A DNA stretch of 63,100 nt, filler included, from Pseudomonadota bacterium (GTDB taxonomy: Bacteria; Desulfobacterota; Desulfobacteria; Desulfobacterales; JBDRRP01): the NCBI GenBank assembly GCA_043825735.1. It is 5 parts of 5 records of this genome, joined end to end, with 100 filler letters (N's around TTAATTAATTAA, not from the genome) between each part and the next. Parts side by side here need not be neighbours in the genome. Positions count along the whole stretch, not along the records: positions 22,709 to 36,913 come from JBDRRP010000030.1; positions 37,014 to 51,058 come from JBDRRP010000031.1; 3 more parts are not named here. One strand, 5' to 3'. This document shows, piece by piece, positions 24,001 through 39,000 of this stretch. The position numbers are program-made. Positions within the stretch are counted from its first letter, which is position 1, and every line of letters starts with the position of its first letter.

Positions 24001-27000
24001 GGCTATCGCTGCGGCACAATTGTCAGGATTGAAACACGTTTGGCTTTTGCTCAACTCATAGATCCTTATCTCAAGCGCTGAGGGTTTATCTTGGCACTGA
24101 TCCGAATACCCTTTAACTCGTAATGCTCATCTCGCAGTGCCTTTAGCAGTGCCCTGGGATTCATCATCCCTTTCGCCTGCTGCGCCAGACTTTACCCATT
24201 CGTCAACCTCTTCCTTACGGAATTTCCACAGCCTTCCAACTCGATGAGCTGGCATTCGCTTATCGGAGATCCATTTGTAGAGTGTATCCCGCTTAATTCC
24301 GAGGTAGGCTGCAATTTCATCTACGGAGAACCATCTGTCTTCCATTTTGAATCCTAACGATGGAAATTTAGTTTCTTGTGTCGGGTGGTATAAGATTGAA
24401 AGAAAATAATACCGTAGGTCTGGCCAGATAATGCCAGATACCAATAAACAGGTATAAATCGGCACAAATAAAGCACAGTAATAACTAAAATGTCAAACTT
24501 TTTCAGGGAATTCCAAAGATTATCTCATGCGCAGCTTATCGTGGTCGAACTTCCTCAATAGCTTTACCATATTTTTTGCCTGCCGGTCTTGCCCCAACAG
24601 CCCCCATCCTGGTCGTCCTAAAAATTTCCATCAAAAATATCGCCTCTGGCACCCATAGAGTGATCAGGGGGTAAGATTCGAAAACATACATTATAGCCCC
24701 CACCCCCAGGGCTACCATCCACAGGGCTGTCGATTCTTATCGATGGCCTTTCGTGCTTTGAAAGGAGGTGATCCATTTGAATGAGAAATCCACAATACCA
24801 AGACAGCAGAGCCTTTTCCCATCCCCCGCCGAGACCCCTCACCATTCCAAGTTCATTTCAAATTACCGAGTTGCGCTGGTTAGAGACCGGCGCCTTCCCT
24901 TTGAGCAGTGCCGTCTGGCCAATTCCCAGCAGGCCCAGCCTATCGTCAAGCATCTCATTGAAGCCCACGGACAATCCGATCGAGAGCAGTTCTGCGTCCT
25001 GATGCTCAATACCAAGAACGAGATTGTCGGCGTGAATATCGTCAGCACCGGCAGCGTCTCATCGGCCCAGGTCTGTCCTCGTGAAGTGCTCAAGCCAGCT
25101 ATTCTGGCCAGTTCATCGGCAATTATCCTGAGTCACAACCACCCTAGTTGTGATGTGCAGCCATCTCCGGAGGATCTGGCTTTGACCGAGAAGCTGATCC
25201 ATGCCTGCCATCTCGTTGGCATTACCGTCCATGAGCACATCATCGTCTCGATGTTCGATGACCGGTATTACAGCATGGCGGACAACGGCATTATTCAGCG
25301 GATCTATGACCGGATAGGGTGAGACCGACATTTCCAAGAATTTCAATGGAGCCATTTGCCCCGGCGGCAAGTGGTTTTTTCATTTCGAAAGGAGGTGATT
25401 CGCCAATGGCATACACACCGGAGCTTTCCATAAAATCGTCCAGCACCCTGAGACGGATCGCATGGGCTCTGGATCTGCCGATGACTCAAACCATTGAAAG
25501 AGTGTTCGAGCATTTGCCCCGAATCCTGGACCGGCAACTGGTCTGCAAGGCCTGCCGGGACCGGTCCAAGTGCTGCAACTGCCCCTTCAGTGAAAACCCA
25601 TTTACACCCGAAAGGAGGTGATCCACATGACCGTGCCCGGTGAATGCGTAAATGACGTCGTCACCAATTGCTGTGAATGCCACGCCGTGCTCAACATCGG
25701 TGTCCATCGCAGCGCAGCCGGCTACTATGTCGGCTTCTTTTGCCCATGTTGCGGCCCTTACAGCCGCGAGAGCGGGTATTACCGCAGTTTCGAGGAAGCC
25801 CAGGAGTCCCTGGAAAGCGGTCTTTACTGGCGCTAACCGCTACAACCATCCACCCCAACAGAGAAGCCCGGTGAGCAATGACGCTTGCCAGGCTTTTCGT
25901 GTTTCTGGACCCATCAAATCAAAAGGAGAATACACCATGACTTACGACAGACAGGAAATGAAACGAGTGAACGCGGCAGAAGTACTTCCTCCGGAGGTGC
26001 ATCAGGAGCGCCGCATAACGGTTCCGAGCCTCATTCCTACGGCACCGCTGGATATGCCTGTGGAGCGCTTCTCTGAGGCCCTGGAGCGCCGTGAGGACAA
26101 CCGCAAGGCATTGCTCCGGTGGATTCAGTCCAACCTTCAGATCGGTGTCGATTATGGCCAGATTCACGTGGTCGGAAAGGACAAGTGCCGGCTGGCCAGT
26201 GAGGGGAAAGCTCATGAGTGCATCAATCCGAGGCACTGGAGCAAGCCATCGCTGTGGAAGCCCGGCGCCGAGAAAATCTGCGGCATGCTTGGGCTGATTC
26301 CGAGGTTTCCGAACCTCAAAGAATACGAAAGCGCCGCCCTTCGCGGGGAGGATCTGAAGGTCATCATTCTCAAATGCGAGCTTCACACGGGTAGCGGTTT
26401 CGTGGCCGCCGAGGGCTCCGGAGCCAGGCGTGTCGCCCAAGACAATGGGGATATTAACAAAAGTTTAAAGATGGCCGAGAAGTCGAGTCACATCGACGCT
26501 ACGCTTCGAGTGGCAGGCCTGTCGGAACTTTTTTCGCAAGACCTGGAGGATTTGCCAGATCAAACGCGGCAGCAGGTTCAACCGGATGCTCAACGGGGTG
26601 CGCCTCAGCCCGGATCAGAGCACCCGCAGGCAGATGACGGATCATTACGCACAGGCGAAAACAGCAACTCAAACAAGAATGCCGCCAACGGCCGGCAGAA
26701 TCAAAGACCCGCCAATGGTCAATCCAACGGCGGCAACCGTATCACCGGCAAACAGTACAAGTACATCATGAGCTTGATGCAGACGGCCGGCATGACCAAA
26801 AAGGAGCTGAACGAGCACTGCGTCAACACCTACGGTTCCGTGGTGGATCACATCACCCGGGCCGACGCCTCCAGCCTCATCGACTGGCTGCAGAACAGCT
26901 AAATCGATTCATTCAACTCACGGGGAAGGTGCCTTCTAGGGCCTTCCCCTTTTCATTGCCCAAAGAAAGGAAACGATCATGACCAGAAAACAAGCATTGG

Positions 27001-36000: not shown

Positions 36001-39000
36001 TTTGTAGTTTCCACCCAATCCCGATCTCTGCCAACAATCCAGTTTTGCCGCCACACAGCCCCCGGCCTTACTCCAAATATTTCCAGTTCCAGCCATCCAC
36101 AACCACTAAACAGGCGATCTGCCCCGGCGCAGGTCGCCTTTTCGTGTCCTAAAAATCCAACCATAGAAAGGAGCCCCTATGTCATGCACAATCTAAACGA
36201 CCATCAAAAAGCCGCCGCCGCCTTCATGTTCGGCACCGCCAGCGTGGTAGCCATCGCAGGATCTGGGAAAACTGCCACCATGGCTGCACGGATAGGTAAT
36301 TTGGTCCGCAGCGGTATCCCGCCGGAAAAGATCCTGGGCCTGACCTTTACCAGGAACGCCGCAGGGGCCATGAGAAACAAGCTCAGGCCTGTCCTACTGG
36401 ATCAATCCTCCAAGGTGACCCTTTCCACTATCCATTCCTTTTGCCACCGGCTGTTGAAGGAGGAAGGCCGGACCTTTGAAATGCTTCATGGAAAGCGTCA
36501 GGTCTATCTCATGCGCAAGGTGATCAAGAGGCTTGACGTGGGTGAGTTTTCCGCCGGCTTCGCCCTTCGTGAGATCGGTCTTGCCAAGAGTCGCCTGATG
36601 GACTGGGAGCGCTTCCGGTCATTTCACGAAAATGATGAAGTGATGCAGGCCGTCGCCGAGATTTACCAGGTCTATGAAGAGGAGAAACGCAAATGCCTTT
36701 GTTTGGATTTCTCAGACCTGCTGATGGAAGCCCACAGATTGCTCAAATCGCACAAGGACCGATGCAACAGCTACCGGCAGACCTTTCCGCATATTCTGGT
36801 GGACGAATACCAGGACACCAATCCCGCTCAGGTGGAGGTTCTGAACCTTCTGGCCGGAAGGAATGATCACTCATCACTGTGGGTATGTGGCGATGATTGG
36901 CAGAGCATCTTCGNNNNNNNNNNNNNNNNNNNNNNNNNNNNNNNNNNNNNNNNNNNNTTAATTAATTAANNNNNNNNNNNNNNNNNNNNNNNNNNNNNNN
37001 NNNNNNNNNNNNNCGAGGAGACGAGCAAGATCATCAAGACCATCGATGAGATCGCCTTTCAGACCAATTTGCTGGCCTTGAACGCAGCGGTCGAGGCGGC
37101 CCGGGCCGGCGAGGCCGGTGCAGGTTTTGCCGTTGTGGCCGACGAGGTGAGAAACCTGGCCATGCGGGCGGCCGAAGCGGCCAAGAACACGGCCGCGCTC
37201 ATCGAGGGGACGGTGAAAAAGGTCAAGGACGGCTCCCAGTTGGTGGCCACCACCAGCGAGGTCTTTGCCAGCGTATCGGACGCTTCGGCAAAGGTCGGGG
37301 AACTGGTCTCGGAGATTGCCGCAGCCTCTTCCGAACAGGCCCGGGGCATCGACCAGATCAACATCGCCGTGACCGAAATGGACAAGGTGACCCAAAGCAA
37401 CGCGGCTGGCGCCGAGGAATCGGCCAGCGCAGCAGAGGAAATGAACGCCCAGGCCGAGCAGATGAAGGCCTTCGTGGCAGACCTGGTGGAAATCGTGGGG
37501 CGCTCATCGAAGGGGGCGGCCTCTCAGCGCACGGCGCGAAGCGTCGCTGCCGTTCCGCGCTCTTCCCGTCAGAAAAAAGCCGGTCTCCCGGCGCCGGCCA
37601 GCAGATCGAAGTCACTGGGCACCAGCGCCCGCGGCGGCAAGCCGGTCCAGGTGATACCCTTTGACGAGGACGAAGACTTCGGCGATTTTTAAATTCGACG
37701 GCAACGATGCCGCCATGCTGCACAGACGCGCTCCCGGAACATTCGTTCCGGGAGCGTTTCTATGCGCGCTGCCGGAGCGCCCATTCGGCAGGGGGGCAGG
37801 GCATCATCGTTATGGCCGGTGGCCGTTCAGAAACTGCCGGTAGATGCGATAGTGATCGGTCTCCTTGTAGGCAACCCGCCGGATCGGGGTGTGATCGAAG
37901 CTGTAGATCCGGGCATCGGGACAGGCCAGCAGGATGGGAGAGTGGGTGGCCATAATGAACTGGGCGTTGCCGGCCCCGCCCAGCCGTTTAAGAAGATCCA
38001 GAAGTTCCAACTGGGTCTTCGGAGAGAGCGCGGTCTCCGGCTCGTCCATAAGATAGAGCCCCGGTACGGTGTAGCGGGCCCTGAAAAAACTCATGATGGA
38101 TTGCCCGTGGGACTGGCTCAGCAGAGAGCGGCCCCCGAAGTAGTCGAGTTGCCCGGGATCGGCCACGGCCCAGCGCTCCAGCACCCGCCTGAAGTCGGAA
38201 AACGCTGACGATCCGAAGAAGGCCCCGGGTGTCGGCCCCTTTGTCCACGCCACCGACACGGTTTCATAAAACCGCTCTTCATAGGGGTTGGCATCGACGC
38301 GGGCATTTTCCCGGCTGCGCCAGATGTGGATGCCGCATCGGCGGGCCAAGGCTTCGAGCAGGGTCGATTTGCCGGTGCCGTTCTCGCCGACGAATATCGT
38401 TACGGGGCTGTCAAGCACCAGTTCGGTTTCCCGCGCGAAAACACCGACATTGAACGGGAACCGGTCTTTGACGGGATACCGCTCCGGATGAAGTCTGATG
38501 GACTCAAGATGCAGGGGCATATGACCAGCTTCCGGGTGCTGCGATTTGCCGACGGGCAATTGACGCCGTCATTGAACAGTGCTTAGCGCCTTTGTGAGAA
38601 ATTGCTTTTTTTATGAGATAGCCGAAAGCATACCCGACAGAGACGGCGCTCACCGGCGATGCATCAGGTATCGGATTTCTCCCTCTTTGGTCAGGGGGAT
38701 CACGTGGGCGGCGTAATAGTCACGGATCACTGCGGCGTCGATGGCGTGGCGGATCGTTGCCTTTGACGAGGCCTGCATGGAAATGGTTTTATCGGCCACG
38801 CGCTGCAGAATCTGGCGTTCCACTTCGGGCCGGGTCAACAGCGTTAGCAGCGTCGCCCTGTCGCCGTTATCGATGGCCCTCTGATAGGCGTCCGGATTGG
38901 TGCGGTATTTGCTCTCAGCCACGTACATGGCGCCGTAGTGGATCCGGCGGGAGATGGCCTGAATGGCATACACGTCATTTTCCACACTGGAGCCGTACTG

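Follow-up and report, generated by a model that had tools for sequence, protein, structure and literature searches.

Which function do the five genes inserted between a nuclease and a helicase gene on contig C30 have, and how were they placed there? The window, i.e., the whole stretch of DNA analysed, comprises 63,100 nucleotides, and its positions 22709-36913 are identical letter for letter to C30. The genome-wide survey's note had described C30 as one of five sibling mobile elements with a common gene frame and one slot for defence genes. As a whole, the data are best explained, and with fair probability, by tRNA-integrated islands that exchange cargo in slots and of which one carries an anti-phage cassette of sugar enzymes and a CARF protein.

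Five related islands at tRNA genes

Outside the cassette, C30 contains the following features:

22711..23562, minus strand: brxC (BREX type 3), 5′ part, truncated by the contig start (PADLOC BrxC, E 5e-144)
23578..24054, minus strand: brxF (PADLOC BrxF, E 5e-39)
24127..24345, minus strand: HTH_17 excisionase-type gene at the head of the BREX cargo, 97% to the HTH_17 protein of C133
24768..25322, plus strand: frame gene radC (Pfam RadC, E 5e-36), five copies
25319..25621, plus strand: frame gene for about 100 aa, no known family (no Pfam match), five copies
25937..26902, plus strand: frame gene for 321 aa, probable single-strand annealing protein judged by position and a Red-beta-like C-terminal domain
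26979..27809, plus strand: PD-(D/E)XK nuclease, phage exonuclease-like, left slot flank (Pfam PDDEXK_1, E 7e-35; PHROG exonuclease, E 1e-23)
27816..27846, plus strand: GC-rich hairpin after the nuclease stop, common to C30, C133, C69 and C73
27883..27942, no strand: 60-bp motif, an imperfect inverted repeat, at the left slot edge, also found at other cargo edges
35985..36182, plus strand: leader of about 200 bp upstream of uvrD, right slot border, common to four copies
36184..36913, plus strand: UvrD-like helicase, 5′ part, truncated by the contig end, right slot flank (Pfam UvrD-helicase, E 3e-50)

The genes for the PD-(D/E)XK nuclease, the 325-aa protein (321 aa on C30), the 100-aa protein, RadC and the element-type UvrD occur in five copies each, on C30, C133, C20, C69 and C73, which bears out the common frame of the sibling stretches. 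The identity of 73-92% reported for it was too narrow a range: blastn gave 34 blocks of at least 676 nt with 64-95% identity, and individual genes were 68-93% identical. The excisionase-type HTH gene had been assigned to the whole frame and was found only on C30, C133 and C20 (three of five copies), and the BREX set said to follow the frame is missing on C69, whose contig ends. The C73 uvrD gene is frameshifted near codon 510. The backbone shared by the islands consists of RadC, the probable annealing-protein/exonuclease pair, UvrD, DUF932, a primase and an integrase.

A tyrosine integrase gene adjoins a tRNA gene at five sites (C69, C73, C88, C93 and C143), and the island integrases of the query set belong to Pfam Phage_integrase. 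On C73, a 49-bp direct repeat of the tRNA 3′ end marks the far border of a complete island of about 50 kb; the att repeats for the other four sites (58, 48, 58, and 25 bp) are located on other contigs, and C30 itself is not joined to any border. Relaxase and type IV secretion genes were absent among the scanned C73 proteins, a set without three ORFs (440-616 aa) located at C73:44.6-49.9 kb; the other elements are in pieces. In contigs of run X1, compared only over the part in the window, no joints that would point to excision were seen. Because five sites with a tRNA gene plus integrase match the five frames, these are very probably not strain alleles. From the att repeats we conclude, with high confidence, that each of the five stretches is a separate island integrated at a tRNA gene and that all belong to one family on one Desulfobacterales-like chromosome. 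It is very improbable that the frames are alleles of several strains mixed in one bin: the assembly is a metagenome bin of 160 contigs with 3.69% contamination, and C30 and C133 have no physical join to a tRNA site, but each of the five distinct tRNA targets has its att repeat, the island flanks carry ordinary single host genes, and a one-contig relative carries four copies of the island family. The different targets and this relative largely remove the earlier worry about mixed strains, and the data support the proposal that these are sibling mobile elements whose defence cargo can be swapped; their borders are now placed by integrases at five tRNAs and by att repeats.

Cargo slots and mosaic frames

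The gap from nuclease stop to helicase start measures 8374 nt on C30, 2092 nt on C133, 926 nt on C20, 4824 nt on C69, and 2479 nt on C73. In the five copies of this genome it holds CBASS, a dCTP deaminase and three unnamed loads; the loads and their Pfam and PADLOC matches were as previously listed. There is not one slot but at least three, with further cargo sites in the UvrD-DUF932 gap and on both sides of RadC (towards the 100-aa gene and upstream); the islands additionally carry BREX and PD-Lambda-4A (PADLOC). Both flanking genes were present in seven of 72 relative loci, where the slot was empty in four and held a co-oriented gene for 263-269 aa of no known family in three, so defence cargo in this slot was seen in this genome only. 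The C20 load is also co-oriented and lacks the slot borders conserved in the other four copies. With a GC content of 53.7%, the C30 cassette is close to the frame (54-58%) and the other loads lie at 36-48%; this frame-like value counts against the explanation preferred here.

The frames are recombinant mosaics. The C20 nuclease is 89% identical to that of C73, yet the C20 UvrD is only 69% identical to C73 and 91.5% to C30, and the clustering of compatible sites was matched in none of 2000 permutations and in one of 100 clonal simulations. We propose that the several intergenic slots of the backbone would swap cargo by homologous recombination between conserved flanks. The alternative, entry of cargo by site-specific recombination at the 60-bp motif, appears doubtful. 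Four copies have the motif at the left slot-1 edge, C73 also has it at slot 2 and at the BREX tail, and it occurs at an empty site in the relative L058; among 401 genomes of the order, exact matches were confined to the present one. All of this fits such a mechanism. However, each slot has a single motif copy instead of two flanking ones, the motif is missing from C20, slot 2 of C69 and three other empty sites, no cassette recombinase lies beside it, and the mosaic frames show homologous exchange. A weak copy of the uvrD leader is present at a second slot on C73.

The frame gene formerly listed as an unknown of 310-328 aa now appears to encode an annealing protein. Since its position is taken by Rad52/22 or ERF genes in relatives and the model of its shared C-terminal domain best matches that of Red-beta (Z 7.1), it probably forms an Exo/SSAP pair with the PD-(D/E)XK gene. 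Comparison of the N-terminal domain, where the model is poor, with annealing-protein families gave no match. With 7010 relatives (E ≤ 0.001), this large unassigned family may represent a new annealing protein. By analogy with SXT ICEs, the island's own pair probably helps cargo exchange. The islands share with SXT/R391 ICEs and their s065/s066 (Bet/Exo) genes (PMC2786100) a conserved backbone, variable slots, inter-element mosaicism, a pair that is probably Red-like and a nearby RadC, but they use five tRNA targets instead of one site, have no conjugation genes among those scanned, and their candidate annealing protein has no family match in the annealing domain. In P2/P4 hotspots (PMC9122126), too, a variable set of anti-phage genes is enclosed by a pair of conserved genes of an integrated element that has its own primase and integrase; the islands are larger (about 50 kb), have several slots, and no capsid-hijack genes were identified in them. 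The survey's note had missed the probable Exo/SSAP pair and the mosaic signal, as well as two points described below, the SIS domains and the existence of a wider ORC-CDC6/CARF6 class.

The five-gene cassette of C30

The load of C30 is composed as follows:

28107..35653, minus strand: extent of the mobile cassette, 83% nucleotide identity to L022 over 7557 columns
28124..29203, minus strand: PfkB-family kinase with CxxC insert (Pfam PfkB, E 2e-16)
29187..30341, minus strand: CARF6 protein of 384 aa with two CARF domains and without an effector domain (PADLOC CARF6, E 1e-113)
30338..32266, minus strand: ORC/Cdc6-like ATPase, Walker A and B retained (Pfam PF24389, E 1e-18)
32263..33336, minus strand: PRTase-CE, probable effector (Pfam PF24390, E 3e-18)
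33333..35213, minus strand: SIS-SIS and HAD phosphatase fusion, HAD motifs invariant in 25 of 25
35289..35489, minus strand: HTH_17 remnant with internal stop at the cassette head, covered by a 202-aa plus-strand ORF

The 202-aa ORF is probably a shadow. L022, the carrier of the matching cassette, has none of the frame genes. The G-x-G-D anion hole of the kinase (22 of 22) and the DD-x3-SG-x-S motif of PRTase-CE (24 of 24) are invariant. The closest solved structures to the kinase are fructokinases and ketohexokinase, the SIS part resembles glucosamine-6-phosphate deaminase and phosphosugar isomerase structures (E 3e-7), and the HAD part weakly resembles Cof-type sugar phosphatases. The CARF6 model (pLDDT 88) best matches Can1 (PDB 6SCE; Z 15.3, rmsd 3.1, 231 aligned), which also has two CARF domains per chain; unlike Can1, the protein lacks nuclease domains and its genome lacks type III CRISPR.

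The order SIS-SIS-HAD, PRTase-CE, ATPase, CARF, PfkB was conserved in 31 of the 35 genome loci, which span many phyla including archaea, and in five of six plasmid loci viewed, the plasmids including proteobacterial ones. One otherwise complete copy lacks PfkB, and a rearranged plasmid copy consists of two blocks, [SIS-HAD, PfkB, NADAR] and [PRTase, ATPase, CARF]. Some copies are joined by NADAR and nucleoside 2-deoxyribosyltransferase, both N-glycosidic-bond enzymes; NADAR was counted in four of 43 loci with a profile built from those same four. Across the 35 loci, the cassette is accompanied by no sixth conserved gene and by neither a cyclase nor a methylase; unrelated RM methylases lie near six of 31 loci. 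For eight of these 31, neither a defence gene nor a mobile one lies within 5 kb, and five are ambiguous, counts that carry no background control.

Viewed from the ATPase side, CARF6 adjoins or is fused to the ATPase in eight of nine loci and effector and partner vary; elsewhere this core is paired with methylases, DruA, kinases or calcineurin-like effectors. The families PF24389, CARF6 and PF24390 reportedly go back to Nicastro et al. 2023 and Makarova et al. 2020. In the literature searched, no description of the five-gene form was found; these two papers and their supplements may list it. Compared with the catalogued ORC-CDC6-like ATPase/CARF6/PRTase-CE cassettes, effector, ATPase, double-CARF core and order are identical, but C30 lacks DNA methylase, DruA and ThyX and has SIS-SIS-HAD in front and PfkB behind, a form sometimes joined by NADAR. 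By gene content, the cassette is a subtype of this class with sugar-phosphate enzymes in the methylase's place; the methylase-linked subtype itself was rejected, as a DNA methylase was not in the operon among the 35 loci.

Type III-A PRTases are retron partners according to PMC7736814, and PADLOC assigns the effector to PRTase_III-A (E 2e-11). A related PRTase-like effector is shared with these retrons, but no reverse transcriptase lies inside or beside the cassette on C30, which, judged by the protein genes, speaks against a retron identity; a group II intron RT occurs near one of 31 loci. TIGR02577 and TIGR02578 gave no cas10 match over the cut-off (controls positive in five and six of 14), although the completeness of this genome is rated at 100%, and an ancillary CARF of type III CRISPR is therefore improbable. 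The CRISPR link once suggested for CARF6 and PRTase finds no support, PRTase_III-A being a retron label.

Proposed function and alternatives

The C30 cargo is likely an anti-phage cassette of the ORC-CDC6/CARF6 class that is self-contained and moves horizontally, and it most likely works as a sensor-switch-effector system draining nucleotides. The effector-less double CARF would bind a nucleotide or sugar-nucleotide cue appearing on infection, the ATPase would then switch and free PRTase-CE, and the latter could break base-ribose bonds and drain nucleotides or PRPP. The sugar phosphates of this reaction would be the substrates of SIS-HAD and PfkB, which would either finish the drain by isomerisation and dephosphorylation or make and erase the cue; the latter would correspond to the methylase's role in sister cassettes. 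In this detail the scheme is tentative. PUA-Calcineurin-CE-HAD, a tested anti-phage system with a proposed dNTP drain (PMC12871103), has a ligand sensor, a 'CE' effector and a HAD phosphatase in common with the cassette; C30 has CARF instead of PUA, a PRTase effector, an ATPase, and HAD fused to SIS. Sister loads of CBASS and dCTP deaminase, the BREX and PD-Lambda-4A genes of the islands, the conserved cassette order, intact cassette motifs and the tandem CARF fold speak for a defence reading. Counting against it are the lack of defence cargo in the slots of relatives, the cassette loci without defence or mobile neighbours, the lack of an accompanying cyclase or methylase as a ligand source, and the copy without PfkB.

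Alternatively, the enzymes might build a non-standard nucleotide or sugar-nucleotide that poisons phage replication or signals to the CARF, with HAD as eraser. All four catalytic sites are intact, neither the cassette has a cyclase nor the genome cas10, and N-glycosidic-bond enzymes join some copies, but PRTase-CE occupies the class's variable effector position, exchanged with calcineurin or kinase domains, PfkB is dispensed with in one copy, and the few NADAR loci are those that yielded the profile; we consider this alternative unlikely. Slightly less likely still is a metabolic or stress module, i.e., CARF/ATPase-regulated salvage or clean-up of an unusual sugar, or deglycation of the kind performed by the PfkB kinase and SIS deglycase pair FrlD/FrlB, carried as ordinary island cargo. 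SIS, HAD and PfkB all resemble sugar-phosphate enzymes, the NCBI name of the first gene is sucrose-6-phosphate or HAD hydrolase, and eight of 31 loci lie among housekeeping genes; against this, neither a transporter nor a catabolic gene is conserved beside the cassette among 35 loci, the identical ATPase-CARF core pairs with the other partners named above, and the slot's other loads include known defence genes. It is improbable that the CARF senses cyclic oligonucleotides made elsewhere, whether by a type III CRISPR system or by the cyclase of the CBASS load on C133, or acts as a ring nuclease: its nearest structures are cA4/cA6 receptors, but cas10 was not detected and none of the scanned flanking genes of 31 loci encodes a cyclase.

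The nucleotide-draining anti-phage cassette remains the preferred reading. tRNA-island defence hotspots are of a known kind; the five-gene sugar-enzyme form of the cassette is a variant that appears to be new. To our knowledge, almost the only known role of CARF sensors is the detection of cyclic nucleotides from Cas10 or CBASS. At its boldest, and with low probability, the locus would represent cyclase-free CARF immunity in which sugar kinase and isomerase-phosphatase produce and remove a novel nucleotide signal derived from sugar (or else an antiviral nucleotide), a stand-alone double CARF reads it and switches ATPase and PRTase, and the islands reshuffle their arsenal with a new annealing-protein family at motif-marked slots. 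Because a double CARF with neither cyclase nor fused effector is kept together with four intact enzymes from archaea to plasmids, the cassette offers a compact, clonable route to what the CARF6 class senses and to whether sugar-phosphate chemistry is an immune signal or a weapon. In relatives of sulfate reducers, the island family adds new hotspots where defence genes can be sought.

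Five sibling frames and their chromosomal sites

The window combines several contigs, and its positions 22709-36913 correspond to contig C30. By tblastn, the PD-(D/E)XK nuclease, the 325-aa protein, the 100-aa protein, RadC and the element-type UvrD helicase were each found in five copies, on contigs C30, C133, C20, C69 and C73, which confirmed the five sibling frames proposed in the genome-wide survey's note. The stretches share 34 aligned blocks of at least 676 nt with 64-95% identity. The gap between nuclease and helicase (slot 1) measures 8374, 2092, 926, 4824 and 2479 nt across the five copies, and its loads are those listed in the note: CBASS cyclase and 4TM effector, dCTP deaminase, the five-gene operon of C30, a CapP-like group and one 203-aa gene. 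The frame content described there holds only in part, as the HTH_17 gene is present in three of the five copies and C69 lacks BREX up to its contig end. In run X1, a possible source of the genome, the slot forms a single 8352-nt contig of depth 22 and other frame alleles have depths of about 8-65, depth not being equal to copy number.

The C73 island is whole (approximately 50 kb) and comprises tRNA-Asn (42912-42987), an adjoining integrase, a D5-type primase, the frame and BREX type 1; at its far border (92958-93006) the tRNA end recurs as a 49-bp repeat. Four further integrases adjoin tRNA-Arg(ACG), Arg(TCG), Leu(CAA) and Leu(CAG). The repeat that belongs to each of them, 25-58 bp long, was found on a different contig; one of these repeats lies on C20 past its BREX set, and two adjoin genes of a type 3 BREX tail. 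Since five frames match five tRNA sites, we argue for five loci of one chromosome. The same match, and a relative's one-contig genome with four family copies (85-99% identity), of which three have their integrase next to a tRNA, speak against the strain mixture considered in the survey. C30 would occupy one of these five sites. Counting this genome, 23 of the 401 genomes examined from the order contain the island family. Partial tRNA repeats at C115:150020-150071, C66:40050-40109 and on C82, C85 and C78 suggest that the genome contains additional integrated islands.

Cargo positions and cargo exchange

The idea of a single swap-in slot had to be given up, because cargo is also present between UvrD and DUF932, between RadC and the 100-aa gene, and upstream of RadC. 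The UvrD-DUF932 interval holds different genes on C69 and C73, on C69 a primase separates RadC from the 100-aa gene, and the BREX types upstream of RadC vary between copies. Among 72 relative loci, seven contain both nuclease and UvrD, with the gap empty (55-128 nt) in four and filled by a co-oriented 263-269-aa gene in three; a nuclease-to-DUF932 run lacking UvrD occurs in 22. The relatives' defence-type genes (BREX, DarT with a Macro gene, ABC-3C, type I and III restriction, GmrSD, an ORC/CARF6 cassette) sit at other positions. Slot 1 is therefore a defence hotspot in this genome, and the family carries defence genes at several positions.

The 263-269-aa backbone protein is conserved, belongs to no Pfam family and in relatives either fills the slot or follows DUF932 beside ArdA. 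Assignment of the 263-aa slot gene as ArdC-like was rejected for want of Pfam support.

Loci of the 263-269-aa backbone protein in relatives
L067:1064-1852, backbone protein
L090:666-1454, backbone protein
L105:3400-4206, backbone protein

Several other loads were observed. The C69 slot load (C69:53758-57778, equal to L004:7759-11779) consists of an IrrE/CapP-like peptidase, a 131-aa gene, a BpsA_C-like transferase, a 189-aa protein with PUA-like clusters among its atlas neighbours, a weakly related 269-aa protein and an AAA_17 kinase-like gene, and is a candidate modified-base-sensing defence system. Elsewhere inside the C69 island, an operon of PRTase, a SIR2-eIF-2B-like fusion, a 389-aa protein and a methyltransferase (C69:39170-43482, equal to L009:13170-17482) is a candidate NAD-depleting system. 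Extra cargo of the complete C73 island includes a PD-Lambda-4A homolog (C73:55905-59807) and a 518-aa AAA_16 ATPase (63455-65011). Inserts within the BREX type 3 sets are an AAA_15/DUF3696 ATPase with a 346-aa partner (C20:36564-39529) and a Schlafen-RecG-like gene (C133:11979-13817).

Gene identities between the copies are discordant: the C20 nuclease is closest to that of C73 (89%), whereas the C20 helicase shares 69% with C73 and 91.5% with C30. Across 379 informative sites, neighbours showed greater compatibility with one another than in every one of 2000 permutations (0.289 versus a permutation minimum of 0.387), and clonal simulations reached an equivalent extreme in 1 of 100 runs. In 14 relatives scanned, the gene before the nuclease encodes Rad52/22 in five, ERF in three and an unassigned protein in six. 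The 325-aa protein has a C-terminal domain in common with these Rad52/22 and ERF proteins (probability 98.8%); no other part of its model is confident. The best structural match is the Red-beta C-terminal domain with Z scores of 7.1 and 7.0 (runner-up 4.3), values below 8 being modest. The core of the protein resembled no annealing family: it gave no significant profile-profile match to Rad52, ERF or a third family and none to profiles of solved structures. By analogy to s065/s066 of SXT, as treated in PMC2786100, nuclease and 325-aa protein probably form an exonuclease/single-strand annealing protein (Exo/SSAP) pair.

Cargo edges carry a 60-bp imperfect inverted repeat that consists of repeated six-base units. 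In four copies it lies at the left edge of slot 1, and it also occurs at C73 slot 2, at the C73 BREX tail and at one relative's empty site. Neither C20 nor C69 slot 2 has it, and exact matches were found in one of 401 genomes, namely this one. At either slot border, a search for sigma-70 promoters gave nothing above chance.

Positions of the 60-bp inverted-repeat motif
Window 27883-27942, motif on C30
C73:65174-65233, motif
C73:69448-69507, motif
C73:87844-87902, motif
C69:58203-58262, motif

Gene content, order, motifs, fold and mobility of the C30 cassette

The five cassette genes overlap by 4-17 nt. The first encodes a SIS-SIS protein with a HAD domain in which every HAD motif is invariant, and the PRTase, the ATPase and the PfkB kinase retain their motifs. 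The CARF6 model (pLDDT 88) shows two CARF domains resembling those of the two-CARF protein Can1 and no effector domain. The top Foldseek ranks went to transporter tails and USP proteins with TM scores of about 0.2, and Can1, with the best TM score (0.43), came only 14th; VIA-align was therefore used for the fold. A profile search of solved structures returned no match for PRTase-CE, ATPase or CARF6. Many ATPase tails, considered for a sliding-clamp contact, end in L-x-L; a Q-x-x-L-F motif is internal, and the tail is missing from archaeal members.

When genomes were scanned with the CARF alignment, 59 candidates yielded 35 loci. All five genes were present in order in 31 (one with a frameshifted PRTase), three were cut by contig ends, one was broken, and no sixth conserved gene was found in the 35. 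Hosts were Desulfobacterota, Myxococcota, Acidobacteriota, Planctomycetota, cyanobacteria, Verrucomicrobiota, Fimbriimonadaceae and Methanoregula. The SIS-HAD gene is present on 20 plasmids; among six viewed, five kept the order and one was split into SIS-HAD/PfkB/NADAR and PRTase/ATPase/CARF. The nearest relative shares 83% DNA identity across window 28107-35653 but none of the frame genes, so the cassette moves by itself, apart from the frame. CARF6 relatives were absent from viral contigs and SIS-HAD relatives from phage records.

Within 5 kb of 31 loci (four duplicates or fragments excluded, 166 of 172 ORFs scanned), raw counts with no background set gave restriction-modification at six (four close kin), recombinase or transposase at seven more, other conflict genes at five, ambiguous neighbours at five and none at eight.

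The ORC-CDC6/CARF6 class and a proposed mechanism

Searching from the ATPase side, we found PF24389 in 9 of 401 genomes of the phylum. At eight other ATPase loci plus L060, a frame relative, CARF6 is adjacent or fused in eight of nine, the remaining one being cut by a contig end. The effectors are PRTase-CE, calcineurin-like or kinase, and the partners adenine methylases (two), DruA-like (two), ThyX (one), Vsr near by (one) and SIS-HAD (two, one with NADAR and without PfkB). Because CARF6 is constant in eight of nine and effectors and partners vary, ATPase and CARF6 are the class core, with the sugar enzymes in the partner position.

L060:938-7302 encodes ThyX, a 462-aa protein, a calcineurin-like protein, the ORC-CDC6-like ATPase and CARF6 upstream of radC, another subtype; its 332-aa protein, tried as PRTase, is CARF6 instead. 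L146:5502-10333 and L147:5210-10011 are each one operon of a kinase-ORC ATPase, CARF6 and a DruA-like protein (DUF4338). Three long CARF6-PfkB or CARF6-ATPase proteins were rejected as fusions, being out-of-frame read-through at a gene junction; a real fusion is the kinase-AAA-CARF protein of L149.

The label PRTase_III-A corresponds to retron type III-A in PMC7736814 and PMC13712802, and the PADLOC model, judged from its name, is probably a retron model. With this label and no cas10 above cut-off in the genome, the earlier view of CARF6 and the PRTase as CRISPR-linked is not upheld.

Hotspot islands are already known (PMC9122126 and PMC2786100), and the cassette's component families are catalogued. 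Neither the five-gene form nor the island family was found described in full-text searches or in passages of a 2026 BREX survey (PMC12839542); Nicastro 2023 or Makarova 2020 with supplements may list the gene order.

In the proposed mechanism, CARF6 would sense an infection cue and the ATPase, through a putative CARF-ATPase contact, would then switch. PRTase-CE, which reportedly attacks glycosidic bonds, as attributed to Nicastro in 2023, would drain nucleotides or PRPP. SIS-HAD and PfkB would act on sugar phosphates and either complete the drain or make and erase the cue. Three less likely explanations are that the cassette yields a new nucleotide product, that it is a metabolic module, or that the CARF protein listens to cyclases outside the cassette. 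The nucleotide or PRPP drain would be comparable to the one through which the tested system PUA-Cal-HAD acts, according to PMC12871103.
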